From assembly GCA_964640435.1 (NCBI GenBank), contig CAZXFJ010000002.1:4175-68174 (forward strand): a stretch of 64,000 bases of DNA, read 5' to 3'. Made by a program: the position numbers and the translations under genes. Positions 9,460 to 54,192 of this stretch are shown piece by piece. The stretch is from an uncultured Gammaproteobacteria bacterium. GTDB taxonomy: Bacteria; Patescibacteriota; Microgenomatia; Levybacterales; GWA1-39-11. Positions within the stretch are counted from its first letter, which is position 1. The number at the start of each line of letters is the position of its first letter. The notes under the pieces were generated by a model. That model made no database searches, was not told the DNA's origin, and saw only the letters and a list, made by a program, of their open reading frames with translations.

Positions 9460-10206
9460 ATGAAAGTATCCGTTGTTATACCCTCATTTAATGAAATGGG
9501 TAATCTTCGCAAAGGAACTCTGGACCACGTAGAACACTTTTTAGCAAGACAAAAGTTTGATTACGATGTAATTATCGTTGATGATGGATCAAAAGATGGC
9601 TCTAGAGAGTTTGTAAAAAAGTTTGTCGAATCAAACAGGAAATTTAAGCTAATTGAGAATAATCATATGGGTAAAGCTGGGGCTGTAACTACAGGTGTAC
9701 TTGCAGCAAGGGGAGATTACATTTTATTTACTGATATGGATCAAGCAACCCCAATTGAAGAATTAAGCAACTTATTGCCTTTTGTGGAAGATGGATACGA
9801 TATTGCTATTGGTTCTCGGGGAAAAGTTCGTCGGGGAGCTCCCTGGACAAGGCGTTTTATGGGGCAGGGTATGATAGTTTTAAGATCAGTTCTTGTGGGA
9901 TTTCCTGAAATTAAAGACACACAGTGTGGATTTAAGATTTTCAAGAAAAAAGCTGCACATGAAATATTTGAAAAGATTAAAAAAATCCATAATGGATTCA
10001 GAACGATAAAAAGCTCATCTGTCGCAGCAGGTTTTGATGTAGAGCTTTTGTATATTGCTGACAAAATGAAGTTTAAAATAAAAGAGGTTCCAGTCGACTG
10101 GCTATACGTTGAGACAAGGAGAGTTTCTCCACTCAAAGACTCAGTTGAGAGTGTACTCGATTTAGTAAGAATAAGAAAAAATATTTTCAAAGGAACTTAT
10201 GATTAA
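9460..10206 (+). CDS. GT2 polyprenyl-phosphate sugar synthase (DPM1/GtrB/CsbB-like)
   Basis: VVIPSFNE...DDGSKDGS, GKAGA, DMDQATP, DTQCGFKIF and GFDVELLY: the DPM1-like GT2 pattern. 248 aa. Confidence 0.85.
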   Translation: MKVSVVIPSFNEMGNLRKGTLDHVEHFLARQKFDYDVIIVDDGSKDGSREFVKKFVESNRKFKLIENNHMGKAGAVTTGVLAARGDYILFTDMDQATPIEELSNLLPFVEDGYDIAIGSRGKVRRGAPWTRRFMGQGMIVLRSVLVGFPEIKDTQCGFKIFKKKAAHEIFEKIKKIHNGFRTIKSSSVAAGFDVELLYIADKMKFKIKEVPVDWLYVETRRVSPLKDSVESVLDLVRIRKNIFKGTYD

Positions 10207-11344
10207 AAGACTTTTACTTCCTCTCTGGATTTTAGTGGCAATCGCTCTTTTCCTTTATTCCTTCACTCAAGTTGATCTATCTTTGACGTTTTCAAGCGCA
10301 GGAATTTTCCAAACTGTTCAAAAATATTTCCAGTATGTAGGATGGTTTAATAGGCCATTATCTACATATATATATGTAGGTATACTAGTTGCTATTTTTG
10401 CTCTTTATGGAATAACGCTACATTTAATAAACACAAAGAAAATTGAAAGAAAAAAGCTATTAACAATAGTTTTTGCAGTAACAGCTGTTTTATTTTTGTC
10501 ATACTGTGCATTTTCTTATGACATCTTTAACTACATTTTTGATGCAAAAATAATTACTCACTACAACCAGAATCCTTATGAGCATAAAGCTCTAGATTAT
10601 GCCGGTGATCCTATGTTGTCATTTATGAGGTGGACCCACAGAGTTTATCCTTATGGACCTTTCTGGTTAGTATTAACAGTTCCATTGTCATATGTTGGTT
10701 TTGGCATTTTTAGTTTCACGTTTTATTTGTTTAAGCTTCTAATGCTTGCTTCATTTGTGGGGACGGTTTTGCTTATCGAAAGACTTGCTAAAAAGCTTGA
10801 TTTTGATCCCCTTTTTGCTGTAGCAGCTTTTGCGCTTAATCCATTAGTTTTAGTAGAATCATTAGTGTCTTCTCATAATGATATTGTCATGATGTTTTTT
10901 GGACTTCTTGCAATATATCTTTTTTATGAGAAGAGATATATTACATCGTACTTTAGTCTTCTTTTTTCTATTCTAATTAAATTTGCAACGGTACTTGAAA
11001 TCCCCGCAATTCTTGCAAAAAGTATATTTAAGCTCAAAGATGAAAAGTTTTTTTATCTACTCATATTATGTATGATTGGTGGGGCGTTACTTGCGACATT
11101 TAGAACACAGTTTCAGCCCTGGTATCTTATATATCCACTTACATTTGCAGCATTTGTGCAGAAAAAATATTTTATTGCAATTCCAGTGTTTATTATTTCA
11201 ATCGCAGCTCTAATGCAATATATACCATATCTGTATTTGGGTAATTGGGATCCCCCAGTACCTTTTATCCTTAACTCTATAATGCTCGCTTCCGTAGTCC
11301 TCTCCGTGATTGTTATTGGAGGATATAAATTAATTAGAAGATAG
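10199..11344 (+). CDS. polytopic GT-C-like membrane glycosyltransferase (GT87/DUF2029-like)
   Basis: 381 aa with ~9-10 TM. First-loop motif SYDIFNY, then GDPM...YPYGPFW and SSHNDIVMM. A paralog with the same motif order sits at 46596. Confidence 0.5.
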   Translation: MIKRLLLPLWILVAIALFLYSFTQVDLSLTFSSAGIFQTVQKYFQYVGWFNRPLSTYIYVGILVAIFALYGITLHLINTKKIERKKLLTIVFAVTAVLFLSYCAFSYDIFNYIFDAKIITHYNQNPYEHKALDYAGDPMLSFMRWTHRVYPYGPFWLVLTVPLSYVGFGIFSFTFYLFKLLMLASFVGTVLLIERLAKKLDFDPLFAVAAFALNPLVLVESLVSSHNDIVMMFFGLLAIYLFYEKRYITSYFSLLFSILIKFATVLEIPAILAKSIFKLKDEKFFYLLILCMIGGALLATFRTQFQPWYLIYPLTFAAFVQKKYFIAIPVFIISIAALMQYIPYLYLGNWDPPVPFILNSIMLASVVLSVIVIGGYKLIRR

Positions 11345-11357
11345 TCCCAAATTCAGG

Positions 11358-11369: not shown

Positions 11370-12920
11370 ATGAATTTAAAGAATAAAAAGCTTTTGTTTT
11401 TTGGAAGTGCAATCTTAATAACTGTTCTTTATTTCGCGCTACGTTTATTTCATTTAACCTCACTACCACTTTTTACAGATGAAGCAATCTATATTAGATG
11501 GTCTCAGATTGCTGCACAAGATGCTAACTGGAGATTTATTTCTCTTACTGATGGAAAACAGCCGATGTATGTTTGGATTGCAATGCTACTCTTGAAGATA
11601 TTTAATGATCCACTTTTTGCCGGACGTCTAGTTTCGGTGATCGCTGGTTTTGGAACAGTAATAGGTTTATTTTTCTTAGGAAATGAATTATTCCGTGAGA
11701 AGAAAGAAAAAATATTTTCATTCACACAAAAAACTGTAACTATTGGGTTATTATCGAGCCTGTTTTATGTTATATATCCTTTCGGGTTAGTGTATGACAG
11801 AATGGGTCTTTACGATAGCTTAGTAGGAATGTTTGCTGTTTGGGCTCTTTATCTACTTGTTTTGCTCGTTAGAACCCTGAGGCTCGATGTGGCACTTCTT
11901 GCTGGACTTGTAATCGGTGGTGGGGTTTTAACGAAAACAAATGCATTCTCTTCTATTTATTCTATGCCACTTCTTCTGCTTATTTTTGGTTGGGGTGGAA
12001 AAGGCTTAAAGAATAGGCTTATTAAATTCTTCCTCTTATGTTTAGTTGTTGTAGTTCTTTCAAATGTGATCTACTCAGTATTAAGACTATCTCCATTTTT
12101 CCACATAATTGCACAGAAAAACGCTTTGTTTTTCTATCCAATAGGTGAGTGGATAAAGCATCCATTTACTTATTTATTTAGCAATCTAAGCGCTCTAGTA
12201 AACTGGTTAATGATTTACTTTTCCGTTCCTTTACTTTTGGTCATTGGGTCATTCTTTATCAACAAAAAAGACTTTTTTATAAAGGCAATGTTAGTGCTTT
12301 GGTTCTTGGCACCATTTTCGTTCTTGGCATTTTTTGGAAATACCATTTATCCAAGATTCATATTATTTATGACCTTACCTTTAATTCCGCTCGTTGCTTA
12401 TTCAATCGTTGAGTTGTTTGCGAGATATAAATCAAACATAGTAAGAGGCCTAATATTAATTATTGCTTTTGGCTTCTATATATATTCTGACTTTTTTATA
12501 CTCACGAATTTCGCGGTTGCCCCAATACCAAGAGCTGACAGGATTCAGTATATGAACTCATGGAGTGCCGGAAATGGACTTGCTGAATCAGTTGAGTTCT
12601 TTAAAGAACAATCAAAAGACAAAAAAATATATATCGTTACACAAGGAACATTTGGTCTGATGCCTTTTGGTCTTGAAATGTATTTGGTTGATAACCCAAA
12701 TATCAAAATTAATGCCTTGTGGCCTGTGAATAATACACCACCTGATGAAATAACTGAGATGGCAAAAAAGCTTCCTACTTATGCGATATTTTATCAGCCA
12801 TGTTCTTCGTGTGGAATTAGTGCAGGTAAGTTGCCTCAAGGATGGAACGGAAAACTAATTAATACTTACAGACAAGGAATTTCAGAGGACTACTATAGTA
12901 TTTATCAAATCCTTCCATGA
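11370..12920 (+). CDS. GT-C membrane glycosyltransferase, PMT_2/GT39-GT83 (ArnT/PMT-like)
   Basis: 516 aa, polytopic. First-loop LFTDEAIY... acidic DE motif, and GRLVSVIAGFGTVIGLF, typical of ArnT/PMT-family enzymes. Confidence 0.7.
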   Translation: MNLKNKKLLFFGSAILITVLYFALRLFHLTSLPLFTDEAIYIRWSQIAAQDANWRFISLTDGKQPMYVWIAMLLLKIFNDPLFAGRLVSVIAGFGTVIGLFFLGNELFREKKEKIFSFTQKTVTIGLLSSLFYVIYPFGLVYDRMGLYDSLVGMFAVWALYLLVLLVRTLRLDVALLAGLVIGGGVLTKTNAFSSIYSMPLLLLIFGWGGKGLKNRLIKFFLLCLVVVVLSNVIYSVLRLSPFFHIIAQKNALFFYPIGEWIKHPFTYLFSNLSALVNWLMIYFSVPLLLVIGSFFINKKDFFIKAMLVLWFLAPFSFLAFFGNTIYPRFILFMTLPLIPLVAYSIVELFARYKSNIVRGLILIIAFGFYIYSDFFILTNFAVAPIPRADRIQYMNSWSAGNGLAESVEFFKEQSKDKKIYIVTQGTFGLMPFGLEMYLVDNPNIKINALWPVNNTPPDEITEMAKKLPTYAIFYQPCSSCGISAGKLPQGWNGKLINTYRQGISEDYYSIYQILP

Positions 12921-15313
12921 AGCAAAAAGTAATTATTGTCTTGTTATCCTGCTTCATTGTTTTGGCATTCTTCTATCAATTATTTCAGGGTAAAGTACCG
13001 TTTCCAGGTGACCTACTTGTAAATCAGGAGCCTTATAGATCTGAATCCATCGACGGGTTTGTAGCTGGATCTATTCCTAATAAAGCTCAAGGACCGGATG
13101 TTATTCATGAGCTTCTTCCGTGGAAAAAATTTACTATTGATTCATGGAAAAACTTGCAAATCCCTTTTTGGGATCCTTATAACTTTTCGGGTAATCCATT
13201 AATGGCAAATTATCAAAGTGGCGTTTTTTATCCGGGAAATATAATATTCTTTATTTTAGATTTTTCTGATGCATGGAGTATTTATATCTTTTTAACTCCA
13301 TTCCTTTCAATCCTTTTTACATACCTTTTCTTGAAAAGATTAAAACTGTCGGATGCAGCATCTTTATTTGGTGGCCTTGCTTTTTCGTTCTCTCTTTATA
13401 TGACAGTTTGGATGGAATACGGGAACATAGGGCATACATTTTTATGGCTTCCTCTTATACTTTATTTTACCGATAGATTTGTTGAAAGAAATAATAGAGT
13501 AGCTTTTTTGGGAATTGTATTGTCTTCATTTGCGGCAGCATTAGCTGGATACATTCAAGGCCTTTTCTATATTTATGCAATCACATTTATTTATTTTCTT
13601 TTAAAAAGTAATTCCCTAAAAAAGCCAAACTCACGTAAAATATTCATTTTCATTTCTTCTTTGGCATTACCAATATTTTTAACTGCGTTTCAAATGTTGC
13701 CAACGCTTGAGCTATTTGGTGAGTCAACAAGGGGAAATTATTCCCTGGATCAAATCCAGAAGATGCTTAATCCGCTTTACTATTTGATAACTATAGTTGC
13801 ACCTGATTTTTTTGGAAATCCTGCAAGCAGAAATTTCTGGTTTGATGGTACATATATTGAGAGAGTTTCCTATTTTGGTCTAATACCTTTTGCTTTTGCA
13901 ATACTTGCAATCGTTTCAGTATTTAAACGAGTAGAGGTTAAGGTTTTTTCAATTCTATTTATTTTTTCATTACTTATTTCAACTGATCTTTTCATAACTC
14001 GTTTTTTCTATTTAATACCTATTCCTGTTTTATCAACAACAGTTGCTACAAGAATACTTTCTGTATTTGCTTTTTCAGGTGCGATTCTTGCAGCATTTGG
14101 ATTTGAGCAAGTTTTACAGAGTAAGGATAAGAAGAAAATGTTTATGATTTTTGGATTATTACTTGCAGTAATAATTGTAGCCTTTGTGTTTACTCTTGCT
14201 TACCCAAAGACTTTAAGTGATTTGACAGTAATTTCTCAGCTTGCAACATCAAAGCGTAATTTAATTATTCCTTTAGCGACACTCATTATTTTTGGCGGGT
14301 TAACATTTGTTTTTTATAATTTGAATCTTTTTAAAAAGTATAAAAAGATGATTTACGTATTTGTTATTTTTGCAATAACTTTCGCAGAATTGTTTTATTA
14401 TTTTCAAAAAATTACACCGTTTGCTCCTAAAAATTATATGTACCCAGAAACACCCATTATGTCTTTCCTACAAAAAGATGCGGGTATAAATCGGTTTTGG
14501 GGATATGGTACTGCATATATCGAAAGCAATTTTCAAACTTTTGATAAAACATACTCACCTGAAGGAAATGACCCGCTCCATATAAAAACATATACCGAGC
14601 TTTTATCAGTTAGCAAAGATGGAAAAGTCCCCGCATTACTTCCGAGGCCGGATGCAAATATTGCAAGTGGATATGGTCAGGAAGATCTTTCAAATAACTC
14701 TTATAGACAAAAGATATTAAATATCGTTGGTATTAAGTACGTCCTTAATAGGAGCGAGATTCTAACAGGAGATTATTCTCCCGATACGGTAACTTTCCCA
14801 GAAGAAAAATATAAGCTGGCTTGGCAAAAAGGTCTATGGCAGGCATATGAGAACAAGAATATAACTCAACGAATTTTTATTACAAATAAATATAAAGTTG
14901 TGAATGAAGATAAAGCACTTCAGACTTTATTGAATAAGGACTTTAATGAAAAAGAGACTCTGGTGCTGTATGAAGATCCAAAGATCAAGCAGAGTGATTT
15001 AAAACAAAGTCTAAAAGTTGATTCATATACACCAAATAAAATTACTATTTCAGCAAAAACTTCCTCCGATGCGCTTCTTTATGTGTCAGACAATTATTAT
15101 CCCGGGTGGATTGCAAGTATTGATGGTCAAGACAACAAGATATATTTGGCAAATTATACTTTCCGTGCTGTTGTTGTACCAGCAGGTGACCATAAGGTAG
15201 TTTTTGAATTTAAGCCACAAAGCTTTTATTATGGAATATATATCGCACTTGCCGGTCTAGCGGGACTGGTAATAATGCTTATTATTATTGGTAAAAAAAA
15301 GAATGAAAAGTAA
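12917..15313 (+). CDS. YfhO-family membrane glycosyltransferase (GT-C), paralog 1
   Basis: 798 aa. WDPYNFSGNPLMANYQSGVFYP, the conserved APDFFGNP block and a C-terminal YYPGW motif. Shared with the ORFs at 24050 and 28539. Confidence 0.8.
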   Translation: MKQKVIIVLLSCFIVLAFFYQLFQGKVPFPGDLLVNQEPYRSESIDGFVAGSIPNKAQGPDVIHELLPWKKFTIDSWKNLQIPFWDPYNFSGNPLMANYQSGVFYPGNIIFFILDFSDAWSIYIFLTPFLSILFTYLFLKRLKLSDAASLFGGLAFSFSLYMTVWMEYGNIGHTFLWLPLILYFTDRFVERNNRVAFLGIVLSSFAAALAGYIQGLFYIYAITFIYFLLKSNSLKKPNSRKIFIFISSLALPIFLTAFQMLPTLELFGESTRGNYSLDQIQKMLNPLYYLITIVAPDFFGNPASRNFWFDGTYIERVSYFGLIPFAFAILAIVSVFKRVEVKVFSILFIFSLLISTDLFITRFFYLIPIPVLSTTVATRILSVFAFSGAILAAFGFEQVLQSKDKKKMFMIFGLLLAVIIVAFVFTLAYPKTLSDLTVISQLATSKRNLIIPLATLIIFGGLTFVFYNLNLFKKYKKMIYVFVIFAITFAELFYYFQKITPFAPKNYMYPETPIMSFLQKDAGINRFWGYGTAYIESNFQTFDKTYSPEGNDPLHIKTYTELLSVSKDGKVPALLPRPDANIASGYGQEDLSNNSYRQKILNIVGIKYVLNRSEILTGDYSPDTVTFPEEKYKLAWQKGLWQAYENKNITQRIFITNKYKVVNEDKALQTLLNKDFNEKETLVLYEDPKIKQSDLKQSLKVDSYTPNKITISAKTSSDALLYVSDNYYPGWIASIDGQDNKIYLANYTFRAVVVPAGDHKVVFEFKPQSFYYGIYIALAGLAGLVIMLIIIGKKKNEK

Positions 15314-16859: not shown

Positions 16860-18388
16860 AAAAAATTCTAACAAATAACTGGGCACTTATTGGCTTTTTT
16901 TTAATCTCAATTTTTTCTGTTTTACCATTTTTTCAAAGTGGCTTTTTTCAGATTCATGATGATGTTCAGGTCGCACGAGTCTATGAGATGGGAAAAAGTC
17001 TTTCTTTAGGAATGTTTCCTGTGAGATGGGTTATAGATCTTGGATATGGGTTTGGATACCCTATTTTTAATTTCTATTCGGTCCTACCATATTATTTAGG
17101 TGGTACATTAACGCTTTTTGGTTTTGATGCGCTTCTAGCTACTAAAATAATTTTTGTGATAGCCATCATTGGATCTGGTATATCCATGTACTATTTGGTT
17201 AATTCTTTTTTTGGTAAAGCTGCAGCACTTACATCTGCGCTTGTTTATCTTTATTTTCCTTACCACGCTGTAAACATTTATGTAAGAGGAGATTTGGCAG
17301 AGCTCTGGGCATATATGTTTTTGCCCTTGGTATTTTTAAGCTTTTTCAAAATTTACCAAGAAAAAAACTTATCAAAAAAATATATTGTTATTGGTGCATT
17401 ATCTATGGCAGCAGTTATTATTTGTCATAATCTATCTGCATTCATGCTTTTTATTTTCCTTGGTATTTTTTCGTTGTTTAGTTTACTAACTGGGACAAAC
17501 AAAAAAAATATATTTACTTCATGTGTACTTGTTTTTGGGTTAGCCTTTATGTTGTCTGCATTTTACGCAGTTCCAGCAACAATTGAGGCAAGTTTAACGA
17601 ATGTTTTAACTCAGGTTGGCGGTGGAGCAGATTTTGCTAAAAACTTTGTATGCATCAGACAGTTATGGGATGGTCCATGGGGATTTGGTGGGTCAGTTGC
17701 AGGATGTGTTGATGGCCTTAGTTTTAAACTTGGAAAATCAAATATTATTTTTGCCGTGATCGCCATTTTACTAGCAATTTTTTACTTCTCAAAATTAAAA
17801 GAGAACAGAGTAATAATTGTGTTTTCAATAGTCTTTTTAATTCTTTCTGTTTTTATGACTTTGCCAATATCAAATTTTATCTGGGAATTACCATTTATGG
17901 ACTTTTTGCAGTACCCTTGGAGATTCTTGAACTTTACGGGGGTATTTATAAGTATTGTAATAGGATCAGGGGTGTGGATTGTTTCTCAGCAATTTGAAAA
18001 GAAAGCTGAATATGTTGCTGTAATAGTAATAATACTTTCCACCTTATTTATAAACGGTAAGCTATTCGTGCCTCAAAGATACCTTGATCGAAGTTCTGAC
18101 TACTATACAAATAAAATGTATCTTAATTGGACAGCTTCAAAGATTTCTGATGAGTATCTTCCTAAAGGTTTTGTAAGACCTACATCTTACGAGCAAATCT
18201 CAAAATACAAACTGAACTATAATAATAGTCTGTATAAGGCTGAGCCTCTTCCAAAACCTCATTTTATGATGAATCAAACATTGGTTCAAAAGGTTTCAAA
18301 TGCGATTTCTCTTATTGGTGTTTTAGGTTTGATTACTGTTATAATAAGTAAATTCGGGAAGAAAGAAAAAAGTTCTAAAAATGGCTAA
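16856..18388 (+). CDS. short YfhO-related GT-C-like membrane protein (H-D-G motif family), member 2
   Basis: IHDDVQVARVYEM...FPVRWVIDLGYGFGYP. 510 aa, polytopic. ATGA overlap with the upstream gene. Confidence 0.6.
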   Translation: MKKILTNNWALIGFFLISIFSVLPFFQSGFFQIHDDVQVARVYEMGKSLSLGMFPVRWVIDLGYGFGYPIFNFYSVLPYYLGGTLTLFGFDALLATKIIFVIAIIGSGISMYYLVNSFFGKAAALTSALVYLYFPYHAVNIYVRGDLAELWAYMFLPLVFLSFFKIYQEKNLSKKYIVIGALSMAAVIICHNLSAFMLFIFLGIFSLFSLLTGTNKKNIFTSCVLVFGLAFMLSAFYAVPATIEASLTNVLTQVGGGADFAKNFVCIRQLWDGPWGFGGSVAGCVDGLSFKLGKSNIIFAVIAILLAIFYFSKLKENRVIIVFSIVFLILSVFMTLPISNFIWELPFMDFLQYPWRFLNFTGVFISIVIGSGVWIVSQQFEKKAEYVAVIVIILSTLFINGKLFVPQRYLDRSSDYYTNKMYLNWTASKISDEYLPKGFVRPTSYEQISKYKLNYNNSLYKAEPLPKPHFMMNQTLVQKVSNAISLIGVLGLITVIISKFGKKEKSSKNG

Positions 18389-27156: not shown

Positions 27157-27390
27157 CTACTTACTTGGCATCCAGGATTTAATTTCTTTTACTGTTAGAG
27201 GTTTTGTAGCGAACTTAAATAAGTATATGATTTCAAGGATGCCAACAGTATTTAATACTAAAATTGCTATAAACCAATTACGTTGTTTAAGATGAGCAGA
27301 TCGCCATAGAGCAAAACCTTTCCACAGAAGAGACCAAATATACAAGATTAAAAAGAGATAGGGTGAATTTAATACAAAGTTACCATCCAT
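27157..27390 (-). CDS. small 2-TM membrane protein of unknown function
   Basis: 77 aa. Two hydrophobic helices flanking WKGFALWRSAHLKQRNW. Only minus-strand gene inside the glycosylation block. Confidence 0.5.
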   Translation of the reverse strand: MDGNFVLNSPYLFLILYIWSLLWKGFALWRSAHLKQRNWFIAILVLNTVGILEIIYLFKFATKPLTVKEIKSWMPSK

Positions 27391-27464: not shown

Positions 27465-27472
27465 TAAATATC

Positions 27473-45096: not shown

Positions 45097-46064
45097 CAGT
45101 TTTAGTTACAGGTGGAGCAGGATACATTGGAAGCTTCATGACTCGCGCACTCCTTGATCGAGGATACGATGTTATTGTATTTGATAATCTAAAAAGAGGA
45201 CACCAAGACTATATTGATAGCCGTGCAAAATTTGTAAAAGGGGATCTAGCAATTATTGAGGATTTAAATAAATTATTCGAAGAAAATAAGATTGATGCTG
45301 TTTTGCATTTTGCTGGTCTTATTGCAGTCGGGGAGTCAGAAAAAGAGCCTGAGCTATACTATAAAAATAATGTGGATGGATCTAAAAACTTGTTCAAGAC
45401 TGCAAATAAAAATGGAGTTAGGAAATACATTTTCTCTTCAACAGCAGCGGTATACGGAAACCCTCAGCAAATTCCAATCCCTGAAGACCATGCGAAAAAC
45501 CCTACAAGTGAATATGGAAAGAATAAGCTAGATATAGAGCATTTGCTTGAGAATTTAGCTAAGGAAAATGATGCAATTAGTTTTGCAGCTTTAAGATATT
45601 TTAATGCTTCAGGTGCAGCGCTCGATGGGTCATTCGGAGAAAATCATGATCCTGAAACACATATTATTCCACTAGCGATGAAGGCCGTTATAAATGACTC
45701 AGAATTTGGTCTTTTTGGAGCTGATTATGATACTCCTGATGGAACATGCATTCGTGATTATATTCATGTACTGGATTTAGTCGAGGCACATATCTTGGCA
45801 CTTAACAAAATTGAAAATGAAAATGGTGGATTTGTATACAATGTAGGTACTGGAAATGGGTATTCTAATCGCGAGGTTATAGCAGAAATTGAAAAGATAA
45901 GTGGTAAAAAAATAAATGTTGTAGAAAAACCTCGTCGCGAGGGGGATGCGGATAGACTTGTTGCAGACGCAAGTAAAATAATGAATGATTTAGGTTTTTC
46001 TCCCAAATATTCCGATCTAACCTCAATAGTAAAAAGCGCTTGGGCCTGGCATAGTAAGCAATAA
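45093..46064 (+). CDS. galE: UDP-glucose 4-epimerase
   Basis: VLVTGGAGYIGSF Rossmann motif, conserved S...YGKNK (YxxxK) block and FGADYDTPDGTCIRDYIHV, as in GalE. ATGA overlap with the upstream GT2. Confidence 0.85.
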   Translation: MTVLVTGGAGYIGSFMTRALLDRGYDVIVFDNLKRGHQDYIDSRAKFVKGDLAIIEDLNKLFEENKIDAVLHFAGLIAVGESEKEPELYYKNNVDGSKNLFKTANKNGVRKYIFSSTAAVYGNPQQIPIPEDHAKNPTSEYGKNKLDIEHLLENLAKENDAISFAALRYFNASGAALDGSFGENHDPETHIIPLAMKAVINDSEFGLFGADYDTPDGTCIRDYIHVLDLVEAHILALNKIENENGGFVYNVGTGNGYSNREVIAEIEKISGKKINVVEKPRREGDADRLVADASKIMNDLGFSPKYSDLTSIVKSAWAWHSKQ

Positions 46065-46080
46065 ATCTGAATTTATCCAA

Positions 46081-46599
46081 ATGAGAATTTATTTTGTTAG
46101 TCTTATATTAATTCTCTTTTTTGTTTTTCCTTCAAAAGCCCTCGCGGAATCACCTTACGTATTACCATATCCCCAAACAATGCCTGGTAGCACATGGTAT
46201 AAGCTAGACTTGATAAAAGAAGAATTGATGAGATATTGGTATTTCGGTGATTTTGGGCAATTTGAATTCGCCCTAAAGGAGTCAGATAAATATTTGGTAG
46301 AGGCTAAAACCCTTTTTGAATACAAGCAATATCTACTAGGTTCTAGCGCACTGCAAAAGTCAGATAGTTATTTTAAAAAGGCTTGGCCAGCTCTTATAAG
46401 AGCTGAGAAAAATGGAAAAAATATTGAAGAGAATAAAATAATTTTAAAAAATGCCTCTGAAAAGCATATAGAGATACTAAACGAGTTAAAGAATAAAGTA
46501 CCAAAAGAATTTAATTGGACACCTGAAAAATCTAGTCCTAGTAATCTTAAATTGGGAGACTCAATTATTAGATCCATAAATATAAGGGCGCATTTATGA
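46081..46599 (+). CDS. secreted hypothetical protein (signal peptide)
   Basis: 172 aa. N-terminal hydrophobic segment ending ...SKALA-ES. Hydrophilic, helical remainder. Confidence 0.45.
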   Translation: MRIYFVSLILILFFVFPSKALAESPYVLPYPQTMPGSTWYKLDLIKEELMRYWYFGDFGQFEFALKESDKYLVEAKTLFEYKQYLLGSSALQKSDSYFKKAWPALIRAEKNGKNIEENKIILKNASEKHIEILNELKNKVPKEFNWTPEKSSPSNLKLGDSIIRSINIRAHL

Positions 46600-47708
46600 A
46601 AAAGATTCTATTAATATACTCCTCATTTTTTATACTATTTTCCTTTATTTCATTTTTTTACATAGATCAGAACTTTATATATCTCAATTTTTTATATACT
46701 GGTTTCTCTTTAAATTTCAGAATTTTATCTGCGATTCTTTATTTTCTTTTTATAACTGTATTCTTCGTAATTTACTATTTCTTATTAACCCAAAAAGATA
46801 TCGATATAAAAAAATTAAGATGGTATCTTTTAGTTCCATGTGTCGGGTTGTTTGCATACCCTGCGATACTATCGTTTGACATCTTTAATTACGTGACAAC
46901 TTCTAAAGTTGCTTTTCACTATCTTGAAAATCCATATATTATTATGCCAATAGATTTTCAGGGGGATCCAGTCTTGATGTTTACTCGTGCCGCAAATAAA
47001 ACAGCACTTTACGGTCCTTTATGGGTGGGATTAACTTCGGTGCCATTTTATTTATCCTTGGGTAATTATCTTTTTTCAATAGTTCTTTTTAAGTTGTTGG
47101 TCGCTTTTTTCTATTTTGGAATTTTATATATTATTTGGAAAAGTACCAAGACTCCATTCAATGTTGTATTTTTTGCGGCAAGTCCATTAGTACTTATTGA
47201 AACGTTTATTTCTGGTCACAATGATGTGGTAATGATGTTCTTGGCAGTTGCTTCAATTTTTGCATTAAGACGAAAAAGAATTTTTATTGCAATTTCTCTT
47301 TTAATTATGTCGGTATTAATAAAATACGCCACAATATTTTTAGTTCCACTTTTCATTTACTACTTCTATTTGAGGTTTAAAAATAAACAAATTGACTGGG
47401 ATAGTGTTTATTTTACTGGCTTTATATTGATGACAATAATATTTTTTCTTTCAGCTTTCAGAGAAGAGATATATCCGTGGTATGCTATATGGCCCTTAGC
47501 ATTTATCTCTTTTATCGCAGATAAAAAGAAATATTTGAGATTATTTGTCATTTTTTTCTCATATTGTCTTATGTTGAGATATCTTCCATTTATGGCTACT
47601 GGAAATTATTTTGGAATAACTCCTGCGATTAAGATTGTAATAACATTTATATTCCCAGGTATTTTTATATTTATTCTTTTTCTTAGAAAGAATTTTAAGG
47701 TAAAATGA
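46596..47708 (+). CDS. polytopic GT-C-like membrane glycosyltransferase (GT87/DUF2029-like), paralog of the ORF at 10199
   Basis: SFDIFNY, GDPVLMF...LYGPLW and SGHNDVVMMF in the same order as in the ORF at 10199. 370 aa. Confidence 0.5.
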   Translation: MKKILLIYSSFFILFSFISFFYIDQNFIYLNFLYTGFSLNFRILSAILYFLFITVFFVIYYFLLTQKDIDIKKLRWYLLVPCVGLFAYPAILSFDIFNYVTTSKVAFHYLENPYIIMPIDFQGDPVLMFTRAANKTALYGPLWVGLTSVPFYLSLGNYLFSIVLFKLLVAFFYFGILYIIWKSTKTPFNVVFFAASPLVLIETFISGHNDVVMMFLAVASIFALRRKRIFIAISLLIMSVLIKYATIFLVPLFIYYFYLRFKNKQIDWDSVYFTGFILMTIIFFLSAFREEIYPWYAIWPLAFISFIADKKKYLRLFVIFFSYCLMLRYLPFMATGNYFGITPAIKIVITFIFPGIFIFILFLRKNFKVK

Positions 47709-49513
47709 TTGGATTCCTTTATTTAGTATCTGTCCTCTTCGTAGGTGCAATAGCTCACGAATTATTTATTGACAAAAAATTCATAATAAATAAGTTTGCA
47801 AGCTCATTTTTGCTTGGATCATTGATTAGCGTGACAATATGCTTTGTTTTGCTATTAATCTTACGAAATCTTAGTTCAGCCTTGTTGGTATATTTTGTAT
47901 TAGTCATACTTTCCTCACCATTTATCTACAAACGAATTAGAGTCTCATTTACCAAGAATACAATCTTCACTGTTGCTATTTTGGCGTTTTCTTTTTTATT
48001 GTTTCAAAAAGCATTTAATTACAATACAGTGGAAAATGTTTTTTTAATTCAAACTAACTTGTATCAAGATATGGGCGCACATATTCCTTTCATAAGATAC
48101 TTCTCAGACGGTGGAATCTTTCCAGAAGCACCTTTTTTTGCAGGTAAAAACTTGTTTTATCATTTTATGTTTGATTTCTATGCTTCAATACTTGAATATT
48201 TAGGATTAAGAATAAATATAGCATTTAATCTCATAAGTGCGCTTACTTTAACATCTCTATTTTTGACTATTAATTCATTATCAAAATTTCTTTTTAAAAA
48301 TAAATATGTAGGAATTTTAGCGTGCATAATGCTACTGTTTAATAGTGACTTGTCCTTTATTGATTTATTTCGTTCATATGGTATTTCTCCTGGTGGGCTG
48401 CTATCAATTTACCATCACAATGCATACCCAATAGGCAACATTTTTAATCTGCAAGTAAGTCAAAACTTCTTAAATATTAATGTGTATTTAAATCAAAGAC
48501 AGTTGATATTCGGTTTGCTTTGGTTTTTTTATCTAATTTATTTGTTCTTATATTCAAATGGGAAAATTAGTTTGAGTTTAGGATTGTTAATTATTTTTTC
48601 AATTTGTGCTTTTCCATTTTGGAATTTACCTATCTTGATTTCGTTTTATATTGTGTTGGTAGGTATTATTACCTTGTTTAAAGAATATAGAAAGAGTGGA
48701 GCTGCTTTAGTAATTTTGTCATTACCTTTTGTTGGCATTCAGGTTTTATTAATTAAGCTTAATTCATTAAACAATATTATATTTCATCCAGGGTTTGTAC
48801 TTGCTGAAAAATTAAGTTTAATAAACTTTTCGCTTTTCTGGATTTGGAATCTTGGAATAATTATTCCACTTCTTATATATGCTTTTATAAAATCAAATAT
48901 TTATCAAAGAAAAATCTTTTTAGTTTTTGTAAGTATTTTTATAATAGCTAATTTATTTCAATTCTCTCGAGATCCATTTGATAATCATAAGTTCTTTAAT
49001 GTTTGGATAGTTTTAGCCAATATTTATGCAGGATATTCACTTTTGCAAATTTTTAAAATAGGCAAATGGGGAAGAGTGGCAGCAGTAATATTATTTTTCC
49101 TAGCAACACTCTCAGGCATGTTGCATTTTTTAGTAGTTAAAAATGATCTTTATGCGAAAATTTCTGACTCATCCAAATTTAATATTTATGGATGGATAGA
49201 GAATAATACAAAAAAAGAAGATATATTTTTAACTAACGGTGAAATATATGATCCTGTAGGCATAATGGGCCGAAGAATATTCTTAGGAAGACCTCAGTAT
49301 GTATATTTATATGGAAATGACCCATCTGGACGTCTAAGAATCAAAGAAAGCGTACTTAAAGGTGAAATTAAAAGTGAAAAGAAGCAATTAAGCTATATTA
49401 TAATTTATAAAGATAATAAGCTGCCAAATATTTATAAAGCTGATACTAAGAAACTTGGCAGTTTATATAAAAAAGTTTATGAAGACAATTTCGGCATTAT
49501 TTACAAACTATAA
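47705..49513 (+). CDS. large polytopic membrane protein, unassigned family (candidate GT-C-like)
   Basis: 602 aa with ~14 TM and a C-terminal ~110-aa hydrophilic domain. No assignable motif. Confidence 0.45.
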   Translation: MIGFLYLVSVLFVGAIAHELFIDKKFIINKFASSFLLGSLISVTICFVLLLILRNLSSALLVYFVLVILSSPFIYKRIRVSFTKNTIFTVAILAFSFLLFQKAFNYNTVENVFLIQTNLYQDMGAHIPFIRYFSDGGIFPEAPFFAGKNLFYHFMFDFYASILEYLGLRINIAFNLISALTLTSLFLTINSLSKFLFKNKYVGILACIMLLFNSDLSFIDLFRSYGISPGGLLSIYHHNAYPIGNIFNLQVSQNFLNINVYLNQRQLIFGLLWFFYLIYLFLYSNGKISLSLGLLIIFSICAFPFWNLPILISFYIVLVGIITLFKEYRKSGAALVILSLPFVGIQVLLIKLNSLNNIIFHPGFVLAEKLSLINFSLFWIWNLGIIIPLLIYAFIKSNIYQRKIFLVFVSIFIIANLFQFSRDPFDNHKFFNVWIVLANIYAGYSLLQIFKIGKWGRVAAVILFFLATLSGMLHFLVVKNDLYAKISDSSKFNIYGWIENNTKKEDIFLTNGEIYDPVGIMGRRIFLGRPQYVYLYGNDPSGRLRIKESVLKGEIKSEKKQLSYIIIYKDNKLPNIYKADTKKLGSLYKKVYEDNFGIIYKL

Positions 49514-51143
49514 GTATTTAATTGTAGTTATATTATTTTCTGTTTTAGGATCTTTGGATCTTTTGCATTACGGCATCCCGCCTACTCATGATGGCGAATA
49601 CCACATAATGCGTTTTTGGCAATTTTATGAAACATTAAGCTCAGGTGTATTATACCCACGTTGGGCGCCAGATTTTAACAATGGGTTTGGGATACCAATA
49701 TTTAGTTATGTATATCCTCTTCCAAATTATGCTGCTTCATTATTTCATTTTATGGGCTTCAGTTATATAGAGTCTCTTAAGTTAAACATGGCAGTAGCAT
49801 CCATAGTTGGAGCATTTTTTTTCTATTTATGGAGTAGGCGTTACTGGGGTGAGCTTGGGGGAGTTGTTTCATCTGTATTCTATACCTTTGCGCCATATCA
49901 CTTTTTGGATATTTATGTCCGTGGGTCTGTAGGAGAAGTTTGGAGTCTGGCAATTGCACCCGGTTTATTATGGGCGTATTTAGCTTTTACACAAAACAAT
50001 AAAAAGTTATATTTTAGTTTGTCATGCTTGCTGCTTGGTTTACTTGTCTTCGCACATAATATTTTAGCTTTAGTTTTCTTTTCATTTTTTATTCTCTATT
50101 CGGTATTCATTATTTTAGAATCTAAAGATAAAAAGTATTTAATTGTTAACACTTTACTTATTTGTATTCTTGGTCTTGGTTTATCGGCGCCTTTCTGGTT
50201 GCCTGCAATTATTGAAACAAAATATGTTCAAGGCCTTCAGATATTCAATCCTACGGCATACTTTCCAAAATTATATCAACTCATTTATTCCTCATGGGGA
50301 TATGGTTTTGCTGGTGTTGATCCTAAACCTGGTGAGGGACAAATGTCATTTCAAATTGGTATACCAAATTTAATTGTAACTTCAATTGTATTTTTATTTT
50401 TAGTATTTAGTAAAAAATTAAAGTACAAAAAGATTATTATTTTCTCAGTTGCATTACTTTTGTTTTTTGTATTTTTAATAACGCCTTTTTCTGAAATTTT
50501 TTGGAAAATTGTTCCAGGAGTTTCATTTATTCAGTTTCCCTGGAGACTACTCAGTGTAGTAATTTTAATCTGCGCATTTTTAGCAGGAAGCATTATAGAA
50601 GATTCTTTATTTAAGGGAAAAAAGAAACTTCAGCTTGTTGTTTCGCTAATCATGATTCTAATCGTTGTGATATATGGAATTAGATACGCCAGAGAACCTT
50701 TTTATCATAAACGACCGGATAACCATTACTTATCGCGGTCTAATTTTACAGATGGAACAAATAGTCCCGGTGATGTTTTTAATACTAAATGGTTAAAATC
50801 TATTCCCCCTAAAGCGCGACAAAAAATTGAAATAATAAAAGGACAGGGTAAAATAGAGAACGTTTACCAGTATCCGCAGCAAGTTAAATTTAGTGCGATC
50901 ATTGAGAAAAAATCAAAAATTCTAGTCAATATTGCATATTTTCCGGGATGGACAGCTACTTCGAACAACAAAAATATTCGAGTAGAAAATTATAACGGAA
51001 AGATAAGTTTGAGGCTCAATAACGGTAAACAAAATATAAACTTATATTTAGCTAACACTCTGATTCAGAATTGGTCTTATGTCTATTTTTTGATAGCTAT
51101 TTTGGCTATAATTTATTATAAACCTTATGAAGATCGCAGTTGA
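49479..51143 (+). CDS. short YfhO-related GT-C-like membrane protein (H-D-G motif family), member 4
   Basis: ATG at 49479 is preferred over the TTG at 49455. PPTHDGEYHIMRFWQFY...PRWAPDFNNGFGIP and C-terminal YFPGW. Confidence 0.6.
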   Translation: MKTISALFTNYKYLIVVILFSVLGSLDLLHYGIPPTHDGEYHIMRFWQFYETLSSGVLYPRWAPDFNNGFGIPIFSYVYPLPNYAASLFHFMGFSYIESLKLNMAVASIVGAFFFYLWSRRYWGELGGVVSSVFYTFAPYHFLDIYVRGSVGEVWSLAIAPGLLWAYLAFTQNNKKLYFSLSCLLLGLLVFAHNILALVFFSFFILYSVFIILESKDKKYLIVNTLLICILGLGLSAPFWLPAIIETKYVQGLQIFNPTAYFPKLYQLIYSSWGYGFAGVDPKPGEGQMSFQIGIPNLIVTSIVFLFLVFSKKLKYKKIIIFSVALLLFFVFLITPFSEIFWKIVPGVSFIQFPWRLLSVVILICAFLAGSIIEDSLFKGKKKLQLVVSLIMILIVVIYGIRYAREPFYHKRPDNHYLSRSNFTDGTNSPGDVFNTKWLKSIPPKARQKIEIIKGQGKIENVYQYPQQVKFSAIIEKKSKILVNIAYFPGWTATSNNKNIRVENYNGKISLRLNNGKQNINLYLANTLIQNWSYVYFLIAILAIIYYKPYEDRS

Positions 51144-52170
51144 CATATCTCCAATTAGTAAGGGTTCAACGTCCGCACACAAAGTTCGCGGTGTGGGTGC
51201 ATACATTAATATGCTCGTTAATAATCTTTCTGAGATAGATACAAAAAACGAATATAAATTTGTAGAAAATAATGAATTTGCTGATGCTGATTTAGTTCAT
51301 TTTCCATACTTTGATCCTTTTTTCCGCACGCTTCCATTTGGTTTGAATAAAAAGTTTGTCGTAACTGTGCATGATTTAACACCGTTGGTTTTTCCTAACC
51401 ATTTCCCTGCAGGAGTAAAAGGCAAAGTTAATTGGCAGTTTCAGAAACTGAATTTAAAAAAAGCTTCAAAGGTAGTCGTTGACTCTAATTGTTCGGCAAA
51501 AGATGTACAGAGAATTGCTGGTGTTGATAAAGATAAAATTGTAACAGTTTATCTTTCAGCCTCAGAAAGTTTTAAAAAATTGATGTCTGGTTCGTGGGAA
51601 AAAGAGACAATCAAGAAGTATAATTTACCAGATAACTTCCTTTTGTATGTGGGCGATGCTACTTGGAATAAAAATTTACCAAGACTTATTGAGGCTGTAA
51701 AAAATACTAACCATAAGATTGTTATGGTAGGAAAAGTTTGGGAAACAGAAATTATAAGTGATAACCCATGGAATGATGATCTAAAACATGTAATGCTTGA
51801 GATAGATAAAAATCCTCAATTTATTAATTTAGGATTTGTTGATGATGATGATGTAGTTAGGCTTTATAATTTAGCAACTGCGCTTGTTATGCCCTCCTTA
51901 TATGAGGGTTTTGGTTTACCCGTACTAGAGGCGATGAAATGTGCTTGTCCGGTAATTTCCTCAAAAGGAGGCTCATTGCCAGAAATTGGTGGGGACGCTG
52001 TTGAGTATATCGATGAATATAATATAGAGAGTATTGTTGAAGCTATAAATCGTGTTATGGCATCAAAAAGCCTACAGGAAAGTTTGTCAAAAAAAGGTCT
52101 TTTGCAAGCAAAAAATTTTACTGTCGAAAAAAGTATTAACGATCTTGTTGCCGTCTATAATTCAATTTAA
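51127..52170 (+). CDS. GT4 (GT-B) glycosyltransferase
   Basis: YEGFGLPVLEAMKCACPVISSKGGSLPEIGGDAVEY GT4 signature. 347 aa. Confidence 0.8.
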   Translation: MKIAVDISPISKGSTSAHKVRGVGAYINMLVNNLSEIDTKNEYKFVENNEFADADLVHFPYFDPFFRTLPFGLNKKFVVTVHDLTPLVFPNHFPAGVKGKVNWQFQKLNLKKASKVVVDSNCSAKDVQRIAGVDKDKIVTVYLSASESFKKLMSGSWEKETIKKYNLPDNFLLYVGDATWNKNLPRLIEAVKNTNHKIVMVGKVWETEIISDNPWNDDLKHVMLEIDKNPQFINLGFVDDDDVVRLYNLATALVMPSLYEGFGLPVLEAMKCACPVISSKGGSLPEIGGDAVEYIDEYNIESIVEAINRVMASKSLQESLSKKGLLQAKNFTVEKSINDLVAVYNSI

Positions 52171-53429
52171 TGAAAAAGGCTTTATCTTTACTCAAAAACA
52201 ATAATTTCCTATCTGCTTCTTTTTGGGTTTTTCTAGGAACTGGTTTTCTAAATTTTGGAAGTTATCTTTACCACTTGATGATGGGAAGATTATTGGGTCC
52301 CTCTTCATATGGTGCTCTAGAGGGTGCAATTTCTGTGTTATATATCCTATTCGTTCCGACCGCAACTTTATCTTTGATAGTTGTGAAATTTGTCTCATCA
52401 TATCTTGGTAAAAAAGATTATAAAAAAATCAATGAAATCTATAATTATCTTTTTAGTAAAGTATTAATTTTTGGAGCAGCTATAACAATAATTTTACTTT
52501 TAATTTCTCCTTTGCTAACTAAGTTTTTGAGATTTCCAAATATTTATATTTCGATATTTATAGCAATCACATTTTTAGTCAATCTGTTCTATATCCTGGA
52601 CAAAAGTGTGGTTCAAGGTTTAACAAAGTTTTTTAAATTCTCATTTCTAAATGTTATTGAAACATCTGTAAAGTTGTTTCTAGGTATTACTCTTGTATAT
52701 TTAGGTTTTTCAGTTGATGGAGCATTTGCAGGAGTTGGAATTGGTTTGCTGGCAGCACTCTTTGTCTCACAAGTATTTGTAAAGCAATCAGTTAAGGTAA
52801 AGCTAAATTTGAAAGCAGATTTTTCTGAAAAAAAAGAATTATGGAAGTTTGCGATCCCAACATTTATTACAACGCTTGCATTAACATCTATTTTTACAAC
52901 AGATATTATTCTGGTTAGACATTTCTTCCATGGCGCAGAGTCAGGATACTATTCCGCGATTTCCGTACTCGGAAAAGTAATATATTTTGCAGCATCTCCA
53001 GTTATTTTTGTCGTCTTTCCTTTGGCATCAGAATTTCATGCAAAAGGTGGAAAATTTGAGAAATTTTTGTACCAAGGAGTGGCACTAGCTGGTTTTGTAT
53101 GTATTTTAATAACATCAATATACTTTTTAGTGCCAAACTTAATGGTTTCACTACTTTTCGGTCCATCTTATCTTCCTATAGTTTCATATCTTGGGATTTT
53201 TGGCGTTTTTATTTCTCTGTATACGATTTGTGCTTTGATCGCCAATTTCTATCTTTCAATTCATAAAACAACATCATCATATTTAGTTCTTTTTGCAGCA
53301 ATATTACAAATAGTATTAATTATTTTATTCCATAACTCATTAACTGAAGTTATTTATGTTTCGATACTTTCTTGTATTGTGCTTCTAATTTCCCTTTTGC
53401 TATACTATCCGCATGCAAAAAGAAGATAA
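52170..53429 (+). CDS. Wzx-like oligosaccharide flippase (MOP superfamily)
   Basis: 419 aa with ~12 TM. LGPSSYGALEGAISVLYI polysaccharide-biosynthesis-protein N-terminus. Confidence 0.7.
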   Translation: MKKALSLLKNNNFLSASFWVFLGTGFLNFGSYLYHLMMGRLLGPSSYGALEGAISVLYILFVPTATLSLIVVKFVSSYLGKKDYKKINEIYNYLFSKVLIFGAAITIILLLISPLLTKFLRFPNIYISIFIAITFLVNLFYILDKSVVQGLTKFFKFSFLNVIETSVKLFLGITLVYLGFSVDGAFAGVGIGLLAALFVSQVFVKQSVKVKLNLKADFSEKKELWKFAIPTFITTLALTSIFTTDIILVRHFFHGAESGYYSAISVLGKVIYFAASPVIFVVFPLASEFHAKGGKFEKFLYQGVALAGFVCILITSIYFLVPNLMVSLLFGPSYLPIVSYLGIFGVFISLYTICALIANFYLSIHKTTSSYLVLFAAILQIVLIILFHNSLTEVIYVSILSCIVLLISLLLYYPHAKRR

Positions 53430-54192
53430 AATCAAACTAATTTCTCTGGTTGTTCCGGCATATAAACAACAAAAAACAATATTAAAAAATGTTGAAGTTT
53501 TAATGGATGAGCTGTCAAAATTGCCTTATAAATCTGAGTTACTGATTGTTATAGATGGAAATCTCGATAATACGTCACAAAAACTTGAAAAATTAAAGAA
53601 AAAAAACATATTTGTATATCAGTATGAAAGGAATGAAGGAAAAGGATATGCAGTTCGCTATGGAGTATTAAGAGCAAAAGGGGATTTAATAGGGTTTATT
53701 GATGCGGGTATGGATCTTGATCCTTCGGAAATATCCTTGATGATTGATACCATGCTATGGAAGGATGCAGATGTCGTTGTAGGAAGCAAGCTACATCCAG
53801 ATTCGAAAGTAAATTATCCATATGTGAGAAAAATTTTGTCTTGGGGTTATAGAACATTCACGCATTTACTTTTTGGCTTTTCAGTTAGAGATACACAAGT
53901 TGGTTTAAAATTTTTTAGGAGGCAAGTTGCTAAAGATGTATTCCCAAGATTACTAGTTAAACGATTTGCATTTGATGTAGAAGTTTTAGCTCTTGCTTAT
54001 GCACTTGGCTATAAGAAAATTTATGAGTCTCCCGTAAAGTTAAGGTTTAGAAATAACAGTACCATTACTTCAAAGAGTTTCTGGAAAGAAATTTCAAATA
54101 TGCTTTGGGATACGGCGGCAGTTTTTTATAGAGTTAGAATTCTAAAATACTATAGAAGAAGTAATAAAGAAAATTGGCTTAATATAGAATGA
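53413..54192 (+). CDS. GT2 polyprenyl-phosphate sugar synthase (DPM1/GtrB/ArnC-like)
   Basis: NEGKGYAVRYG, GFIDAGMDLDP, DTQVGLKFF and AFDVEVLALA. 259 aa. Confidence 0.8.
   Translation: MQKEDKIKLISLVVPAYKQQKTILKNVEVLMDELSKLPYKSELLIVIDGNLDNTSQKLEKLKKKNIFVYQYERNEGKGYAVRYGVLRAKGDLIGFIDAGMDLDPSEISLMIDTMLWKDADVVVGSKLHPDSKVNYPYVRKILSWGYRTFTHLLFGFSVRDTQVGLKFFRRQVAKDVFPRLLVKRFAFDVEVLALAYALGYKKIYESPVKLRFRNNSTITSKSFWKEISNMLWDTAAVFYRVRILKYYRRSNKENWLNIE

Follow-up and report, generated by a model that had tools for sequence, protein, structure and literature searches.

The 64 kb stretch of DNA analysed here (contig CAZXFJ010000002.1 of assembly GCA_964640435.1; hereafter the window, in whose coordinates all positions are given) carries a dense run of genes for glycosyltransferases of the GT-C fold, accompanied by a few short GT2 glycosyltransferases which resemble synthases of lipid-linked sugar donors. 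This raises the question of whether the run comprises four self-contained modules, each with a donor synthase and its own acceptor enzymes, or one system drawing on a shared pool. The latter appears to be the better answer, and a probability of roughly 0.6 is attached to the reading that these genes form one conserved, shared-pool system, within a single co-directional cell-surface glycan cluster of a Patescibacteria (candidate phyla radiation, CPR) bacterium. The cluster starts at 9460 (genes are referred to below by their start positions), covers at least 54.5 kb inside the window and continues past the window end (beyond 64000), where its 3' part is cut. All long open reading frames (ORFs) from 7935 to the window end lie on the plus strand and are packed tightly or overlap, with a G+C content of approximately 33 % throughout the window. 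Forty-three plus-strand genes could be distinguished from 9460 onwards, eighteen of which encode GT-C-fold proteins and four of which encode short GT2 enzymes. That eighteen GT-C genes and four GT2 genes resembling donor synthases should stand together, all facing the same way and collinear in relatives, is far beyond chance. The genes named in a first-pass annotation of the sequence are all present at the positions it gave, as long plus-strand ORFs, and their Pfam families are as it proposed or close to it.

Collinearity with related loci (numbered with the prefix L) extends from the first gene of the cluster on, while the upstream neighbour differs, being PurB in the window and NDK in L152. 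The cluster of L152 starts with a 251 amino acid GT2 which overlaps a GT-C of the MptA_B family, and the pair formed by GT2 9460 and the MptA/MptB-like GT-C 10199 (10199–11344), with an 8 nt overlap, is conserved at the cluster start. In relatives the order MptA/B-like, PMT_2, YfhO, PTPS_related, PTPS_related, GT2 (18381-like), Wzx, GT2, GT2 is collinear with that of the window, at 43–72 % protein identity. Furthermore, the identical sequence was recovered in independent assemblies.

On the basis of Pfam, ten GT2 genes occur in the cluster. Four encode short proteins, all with a PF00535 match, namely 9460 (9460–10206; 248 amino acids; a putative polyprenyl-phosphate hexose synthase), 18381 (18381–19100; 239 amino acids), 31740 (31740–32453; 237 amino acids) and 53413 (53413–54192; 259 amino acids). 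The first-pass annotation had set these apart as DPM1/GtrB/CsbB-like, and they do represent a real subgroup, being mutual best BLAST matches at 27–31 % identity, with the other six (20562, 21487, 26387, 30806, 44308 and 59111) in separate groups. Family placement was made using bit-score profiles against NCBIfam and the PDB rather than a tree, an approach which does not predict sugar specificity. The best solved relative is the Pyrococcus dolichyl-phosphate-mannose synthase (PfDPMS) for 9460 (E-value 1e-16; GtrB 1e-14), 31740 (1e-17, residues 1–233) and 53413 (3e-10, residues 10–225), the most divergent of the four, and ArnC for 18381 (2e-18, followed by GtrB and PfDPMS). GtrB and ArnC are the next-best solved relatives for three of the short GT2 enzymes, with GtrB not among the matches of 53413. 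These PDB matches span 166 to approximately 230 of the 237–259 residues, mostly over the catalytic domain. The NCBIfam models matched include AglJ (117 bits for 31740), PgfS, ArnC, PpgS and a haloarchaeal dolichyl-phosphate hexose transferase. The matches extend over approximately 200 residues or more for 18381, 31740 and several of the models of 9460 and 53413, the best-scoring models of 9460 covering 133–170 residues, and only about 100 N-terminal residues of the six other GT2 enzymes match the lipid-phosphate models.

The aligned short GT2 enzymes share a VDDGS-D-T motif and, downstream of the DxD motif (DMD in 9460, DGD in 18381, DAD in 31740), a D-x-x-[G/C]-[F/Y/L]-K segment common to all four, which we take to be typical of the DPM1 group. 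No hydrophobic or transmembrane (TM) segment was found in any of the four, the lengths of which are conserved in homologues, and three end in an amphipathic segment with a hydrophobic moment of approximately 0.5. As the two C-terminal helices of the GtrB/CsbB/ArnC subtype are absent, these enzymes are of the type represented by GacI, PpgS and human DPM1 and not of the hairpin type. The likening to GtrB and CsbB thus holds for the GT2 family group but is imprecise where the C-terminal membrane hairpin is concerned. GacI, which is also TM-less, makes undecaprenyl-phosphate N-acetylglucosamine and is membrane-bound and active without a partner, being merely stimulated by GacJ (10.1101/180810). 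Judged from sequence, the four short GT2 enzymes are probably polyprenyl-phosphate glycosyltransferases, candidates whose lipid acceptor is deduced from these resemblances. Identities of 69–89 % to the 18381 protein were seen in over 100 protein clusters from Patescibacteria, all of approximately 239 amino acids, with 45–65 % for its neighbours, and this high conservation suggests that it may play a core role.

The eighteen GT-C-fold genes, located between 10199 and 58273, belong to at least seven sequence families. Thirteen encode polytopic proteins with matches above the Pfam cut-off to PMT_2/PMT (11370–12920, 34423–36066, 38119–39771, 39774–41429, 42945–44273 and 56945–58273, with 34423 matching both models), YfhO (12917–15313, PF09586 at 89 bits; 24050–26374; 28539–30809) or PTPS_related (PF10131; 15288–16859, 16856–18388, 22401–24053 and 49455–51143). 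In hhalign comparisons, YfhO is linked to PTPS_related with 99 % probability, in line with the short YfhO-like appearance of 15288, and to PMT_2 with 95–97 %. The 41438–42958 protein, with fourteen hydrophobic segments, is related to the PMT_2 group at the profile level only (95 %). The 10199 protein scores 59 bits on the NCBIfam MptA and 35 bits on the MptB model, far below the equivalog cut-offs, and its own Pfam match is weak; its orthologs with 60 % identity carry the MptA_B_family domain (PF26314). A GT87/MptA-B-like paralogue (46596–47708; GT87 E-value 0.0018) shares 33 % identity with it (E-value 2.5e-43). An acidic residue after TM helix 1 is kept in most of the GT-C proteins, in positions read off the sequence without superposition on solved active sites: DE in five PMT_2 proteins (including 11370), [T/H]-D-[D/G] in the four PTPS_related proteins and D in two of the three YfhO proteins. 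Recent tandem duplication was ruled out as the origin of this array, the paralogues being merely 26–36 % identical.

Two of the eighteen, 32489 (32489–34423) and 47705 (47705–49513), have no match in Pfam or NCBIfam, and a search of PDB sequences with a profile of the 32489 family gave no meaningful match, such that structure prediction was needed. AlphaFold2 models built from 42-sequence alignments reached mean confidence (pLDDT) values of 90.3 for 32489 and 91.5 for 47705, and Foldseek searches with both models retrieved GT-C enzymes only (E-values 6e-8 to 6e-3, probability 1.0). These were DPY19, STT3/PglB/AglB and AftA for 32489 (6e-8 to 6e-5), and DPY19, STT3, AglB, AftA (TM-score 0.52), PglB, ArnT and Pmt4 for 47705. 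The predicted structures thereby confirm two GT-C-fold families for which Pfam holds no model. An aspartate is invariant in each family (D138 in the 32489 family, D122 in the 47705 family). The former comprises 685 representatives at an E-value of 1e-30 or below among 1.84 billion, the latter about 70 known relatives, and the homologues of both are all unnamed Patescibacteria proteins. In the distantly related locus L087, a stand-alone GT-C of the 32489 family (12116–12970) adjoins BacA (undecaprenyl-diphosphatase), near a GT87 gene; the position beside BacA is consistent with the use of a polyprenyl carrier.

Lipid-phosphate sugars made in the cytoplasm and used by GT-C enzymes on the outside probably offer the best explanation for this gene content, with the lipid acceptor, sugars, flipping and acceptors read from homology and gene context. 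The four TM-less GT2 enzymes would each transfer a single sugar from a nucleotide sugar to polyprenyl phosphate at the cytoplasmic face, GalE, RmlD and the other short-chain dehydrogenases/reductases (SDRs) of the cluster would supply the nucleotide sugars, and ten ordinary GT2 and GT4 enzymes would assemble an oligosaccharide or a polymer primer on a lipid. Two MOP/Wzx proteins may flip either or both of two substrates, the lipid-linked oligosaccharide and the polyprenyl-phosphate monosaccharides; the latter is the role put forward for GacK. Outside the membrane, the eighteen GT-C enzymes would use the lipid-phosphate sugars for the extension, branching or decoration of glycopolymers and/or proteins of the cell surface. 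As a pair of donor synthase and user, GT2 9460 and the MptA/MptB-like 10199 are the clearest candidates, and resemble the mycobacterial Ppm1 with MptA and MptB. The first-pass annotation had proposed the same general logic, and it is supported by the kinship to PfDPMS, GtrB and ArnC, and by the acidic motif after TM helix 1.

Several observations weigh against this reading. None of the four short GT2 enzymes reaches an NCBIfam equivalog cut-off, such that the lipid acceptor is a putative one, and as no such cut-off is even approached, the sugar cannot be named. GT2 53413 carries D-A-G-M-D in place of the canonical DxD, a D-A-G-x-[D/E] motif which is invariant in 53 homologues (L088–L141) at the usual DxD position of the GT-A fold. 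No match to the GacJ family (DUF2304) was found in the window, and GtrA is also absent (PF04138 in none of its ORFs). The Wzx genes lie among GT2 and GT4 genes, as they would in an ordinary Wzx-dependent repeat-unit locus, and neither an initiating phosphoglycosyltransferase nor Wzy is encoded in the window (no matches to Bac_transf, Glycos_transf_4 or Wzy_C), beyond which the cluster runs on. The Foldseek matches of 32489 and 47705 resemble oligosaccharyltransferases as much as monosaccharide transferases, and distant homologues of 32489 stand alone, near pilus genes or BacA, without a neighbouring GT2.

The crossing of the membrane is open to a different interpretation. Having noted the lack of GtrA, the first-pass annotation suggested that two Wzx-like proteins may take its role. 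These are encoded at 19104–20561, directly 3' of GT2 18381 (Polysacc_synt_3, 158 bits; NCBIfam MOP flippase, 130 bits), and at 52170–53429, directly 5' of GT2 53413 (Polysacc_synt_3, 74 bits; MatE, 26 bits). That both directly adjoin a short GT2 has a label-permutation probability of 0.03. In metagenome loci, the 52170-like Wzx is immediately upstream of a 53413-like GT2 in 25/34 cases and within three ORFs in 33/34, and the adjacency of 18381 and 19104 is kept in 3/3 relatives (L149, L150, L151/L152). The suggested role is supported in so far as gene adjacency can indicate it, but the same adjacency fits the export of lipid-diphosphate oligosaccharides made by the ordinary glycosyltransferases equally well. 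It is possible, but less likely, that the Wzx proteins flip only lipid-diphosphate oligosaccharides, and that the polyprenyl-phosphate monosaccharides cross via a protein encoded elsewhere, via a DUF5652 protein or via the GT-C enzymes themselves. The flanking GT2 and GT4 genes represent the classical repeat-unit arrangement, the top match of Wzx 19104 is a WzxC-type MOP model, and the ten ordinary cytoplasmic glycosyltransferases require an export route. Furthermore, a conserved small membrane gene, absent from the first-pass annotation, occupies the one gap of any size in the cluster. This gene (27157–27390, minus strand) encodes a DUF5652 protein of 77 amino acids with two TM segments (PF18893, 81 bits), and has counterparts with 47–61 % identity in the same place in six related loci, which represent five distinct relatives (L083/L084, L008, L150, L003 and L005). 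It is the only small membrane gene found and, by Pfam, is unrelated to DUF2304; a literature search on DUF5652 yielded nothing relevant. Against a restriction of the Wzx proteins to oligosaccharides stand the lack of an initiating transferase, of Wzy and of any WaaL/PglL-type ligase in the window, the conserved adjacency of each Wzx to a short GT2, and the precedents for MOP-family flippases of lipid-phosphate monosaccharides. Such a role has been proposed, and is unproven, both for the Wzx-family protein GacK (PMC8035078; 10.1101/180810) and for the MATE flippase ORF14 in place of GtrA (PMC11127046). The substitution of Wzx or MATE proteins for GtrA has therefore been published before and is not a new idea.

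The first-pass annotation had further described the run as four iterated modules, in each of which a short GT2 stands first and supplies a series of GT-C enzymes of its own further downstream. Some features do accord with this arrangement: GT2 9460 and 53413 lie at promoter-like sites (TTCAAA-16-TATAAT ending 8 nt ahead of the ATG of 9460; TATACT 6 nt before that of 53413), the 9460/10199 pair overlaps and is conserved, and the adjacency of 31740 to 32489 is kept in close relatives. However, the gene order is at chance level. A short GT2 is directly followed by a GT-C in two of four cases, and when the 43 gene labels were permuted 100,000 times, two or more such cases arose with a probability of 0.56, as expected where 18/43 genes are GT-C genes. 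GT2 18381 and 31740 overlap the genes upstream of them, by 8 and 32 nt, and neither is preceded by a -10 box. Furthermore, since 18381 follows the conserved run of five GT-C genes in relatives, it closes rather than heads a run. The 32489-like GT-C is located 5' of the 31740-like GT2 in L004 and L005, GT2 and GT-C have also changed places in L006, and 31740-like GT2 genes have a polytopic neighbour in 26/66 loci from many phyla, an association which is common but not obligatory. The modular parse also omitted thirteen genes (26387, 27455, 28539, 30806, 36091 and eight in 44308–52170), among them three GT-C genes (46596–51143) within the latter stretch which have no short GT2 ahead of them. Four separate modules are thus unlikely.

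The promoter-like signals are distributed throughout the run. TATAAT-like boxes ending 4–11 nt before the start codon were found for thirteen of 44 genes (the 43 cluster genes and PurB), with 2.4 expected. The boxes lie within 7922–56938, and an exact TATAAT precedes 7935, 9460, 11370, 26387, 36091, 38119 and 52170. The distance to the ATG is 6 nt for 11370 and 26387, and 8 nt for 38119, 39774 and 52170. Shine-Dalgarno motifs are rare in the cluster, which, together with the boxes near the ATG, suggests that transcripts may be leaderless and initiated from many internal promoters. Generic scans for sigma-70 promoters and terminators gave counts not above those of shuffled sequences and are therefore uninformative, the signal being found only in the position-specific test for the -10 box.

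A second unlikely alternative to the shared-pool reading is that the short GT2 enzymes are ordinary soluble transferases acting on a lipid-linked glycan or another acceptor, with the donors of the GT-C enzymes made by synthases elsewhere. The scores far below the equivalog cut-offs, the lack of a TM anchor in all four, and the metal motif of 53413, which is always paired with Wzx and GT4, would be in keeping with this. Conversely, the best solved relatives are all polyprenyl-phosphate glycosyltransferases and match mostly over the catalytic domain, while GT2 enzymes not acting on lipids (chondroitin synthase, teichoic-acid enzymes) match the nucleotide-binding half only, that is, the first 100–125 residues. 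The shared D-x-x-[G/C]-[F/Y/L]-K segment, on our assumption about the DPM1 group, also argues against ordinary transferases, as do the TM-less GacI and PpgS, proven synthases of lipid-phosphate sugars, and the need of eighteen GT-C enzymes for lipid-linked donors.

An Arn-like pathway was also considered, but is very unlikely and was largely rejected. In such a pathway, 53413, 55282, 56130 and 56945 would attach a formylated amino sugar to a lipid, remove the formyl group and transfer the sugar on the outer side of the membrane, in parallel with the enzyme types ArnC, ArnD, ArnA-N and ArnT (the formyltransferase scoring 69 bits on the ArnA and GT2 53413 39 bits on the ArnC model). However, the CE4 deacetylase is closest to the XrtA type and not to ArnD, the formyltransferase reaches an equal score on Fmt, the window encodes neither an aminotransferase nor ArnE/F, and the CE4 and formyltransferase pair is missing in all 61 relatives, whose genes at this position are of the kind usual for variable regions of nucleotide-sugar tailoring.

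A GT4 like that encoded at 54189–55289, the conserved downstream partner of GT2 53413, follows the 53413-like GT2 in 23/46 loci, and a 56945-like GT-C occurs within three ORFs downstream of this GT2 in twelve relatives, in several of them directly after the GT4. The intervening CE4 deacetylase-like (55282–56133) and formyltransferase (56130–56945) genes occur in 0/61 related loci (L088–L148) and are therefore a lineage-specific insertion. The relatives encode instead DegT aminotransferases, an RmlC-like protein, a cupin (FdtA-like) and a C-methyltransferase, and the 55282–56945 region looks like a variable, serotype-like sugar-tailoring zone.

The closest known counterpart of the shared-pool system is the GacI/GacJ/GacK/GacL system for side-chain glycosylation of the streptococcal group A carbohydrate, a multi-component variant of transmembrane glycosylation (PMC8035078; 10.1101/180810). 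Both combine a TM-less GtrB-related GT-A enzyme, which makes the polyprenyl-phosphate sugar in the Gac system, with a Wzx-family protein that, instead of GtrA, is proposed to do the flipping, and with GT-C activity on the outside; in both, the genes share one polysaccharide cluster with rhamnose genes. The cluster differs from the Gac system in its lack of a GacJ/DUF2304 partner, in having four synthase-like GT2 and eighteen GT-C genes instead of one of each, in its Patescibacteria host and in being known from its genes alone; within the window, it also lacks both an ABC exporter and an initiating transferase. The same succession of donor, flippase and GT-C underlies GtrA/GtrB/GtrC (Shigella, Salmonella), CsbB/GtcA/YfhO (Bacillus, Listeria) and CsdAB/CD/EF with CflA (Lactococcus). 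YfhO-family GT-C enzymes are shared with these classical three-component systems, and in Lactococcus one flippase serves several GT2/GT-C pairs. The GT2 enzymes of the window differ from the classical ones in lacking the C-terminal membrane hairpin, no GtrA-family protein accompanies them, GT-C enzymes and donor synthases stand at 18:4 rather than 1:1, and the genes form one cluster rather than scattered pairs.

Mycobacterial and corynebacterial lipomannan, lipoarabinomannan and arabinogalactan are assembled by Ppm1, PpgS/Rv3632/Rv3779, MptA, MptB, Emb and Aft. The comparison, which draws on NCBIfam and Pfam names, indicates a common plan of many GT-C enzymes acting on few polyprenyl-phosphate-sugar donors, a polymer built outside the membrane and a TM-less synthase of the Ppm1/PpgS type. 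The likeness extends to the matches of 10199 to the MptA and MptB models, with scores far short of equivalog level. In contrast to mycobacteria, the genes form an operon-like run, YfhO and PTPS_related proteins dominate, and genes of an arabinose (decaprenylphosphoryl arabinose, DPA) pathway are lacking. In the pentofuranose systems (PMC11127046), a MOP-superfamily transporter was likewise placed in the GtrA role by genetic context, and GT-C families were found through predicted structures. The donor synthase is, however, of the phosphoribosyltransferase type there, and single three-gene units decorate O antigens.

The closest loci and homologues carry the names Patescibacteria, Paceibacterota, Levybacteria/Levyibacteriota and Gottesmanbacteria, with GT2 18381 sharing 78 % identity with a Levybacteria protein. 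Going by these named homologues, the organism is probably Levybacteria/Microgenomates-like. Three metagenome-assembled genomes titled 'uncultured Gammaproteobacteria' (L003, L006 and L008; contigs of 0.04–0.95 Mb) hold the same Patescibacteria-type cluster, and a fourth with this title, L007, is a 3.2 kb fragment on which there are just the GT2 and a pair of PMT_2 genes. All four probably bear the wrong taxonomic label. Relatives' contigs of 0.59–0.95 Mb suggest genomes near 1 Mb, in which a cluster of at least 54.5 kb would therefore make up at least approximately 5 % of the genome.

A considerable part of bacterial diversity falls to the Patescibacteria. Most of them seem to be host-attached, and next to nothing is known of their surface chemistry. 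A search of the accessible literature found no paper linking them to GT-C, YfhO or PMT_2 proteins. What is new here is the scale (eighteen GT-C enzymes and four candidate donor synthases), the host lineage, the two GT-C families and the conserved DUF5652 gene. The GT-C count is presumably about that of the whole Mycobacterium tuberculosis genome, and eighteen GT-C enzymes in so small a genome point to a large outlay on glycans which would be built from lipid-linked sugars on the outer side of the membrane. The two Wzx proteins paired with TM-less synthases furthermore offer a test case for the flipping of polyprenyl-phosphate monosaccharides by the MOP family. A more far-reaching and rather doubtful proposition is that Levybacteria-like bacteria with genomes below about 1 Mb devote at least 5 % of these to a mycobacteria-style assembly line, where a few donors would serve eighteen GT-C enzymes, including the two new families, DUF5652 would act as the flippase or as the anchor of the synthases, and the resulting coat, a complex surface glycan or glycoprotein, would probably be the interface with the host.

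The remaining genes of the cluster encode several further glycosyltransferases, sugar-nucleotide enzymes and other membrane-associated proteins. The ordinary GT2 enzymes outside the DPM1-like group comprise two adjacent ones (20562–21485 and 21487–22398) between Wzx 19104 and the GT-C 22401, and those at 26387–27151, 30806–31771 and 44308–45096, while GT4 enzymes are encoded at 27455–28534 and 51127–52170. The GT2 at 44308 is followed by GalE, a UDP-glucose 4-epimerase (45093–46064; 403 bits against a cut-off of 262), and a single-TM DUF5667 protein (46081–46599). Beyond the GT-C 56945, the tail of the cluster begins with RmlD (58263; 232 bits against a cut-off of 224) and extends to 63999 with GT2 59111, SDR sugar-nucleotide enzymes at 60056 and 61060, a GT4 at 61865 and an S-adenosylmethionine-dependent methyltransferase at 63100.

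The protein encoded at 36091–38097 is not of the GT-C type and incorporates a signal peptide, a DUF3863-like extracytoplasmic domain of approximately 480 amino acids (PDB 3lm3, E-value 2e-4), one or more TM segments and a C-terminal domain. Its C-terminal 120 or so amino acids resemble the C-terminal domain of GT-C 32489 (hhalign probability 60 %). A weaker match, at 32 %, links 32489 to the C-terminus of 47705; 36091 itself has no match to 47705. Homologues of 36091 lie directly 3' of the 53413-like GT2 in L126–L128.

Upstream of the cluster, positions 1–7900 hold housekeeping genes on both strands, including a tRNA, chromate-transporter halves, UDG, an AlkZ-like protein, PurK, a rhodanese-domain protein (UPF0176) and PurB. 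The tRNA is located at 513–584 on the minus strand, and the two neighbouring chromate-transporter half genes (179 and 199 amino acids; 1130–2252, minus strand) overlap by 17 nt.

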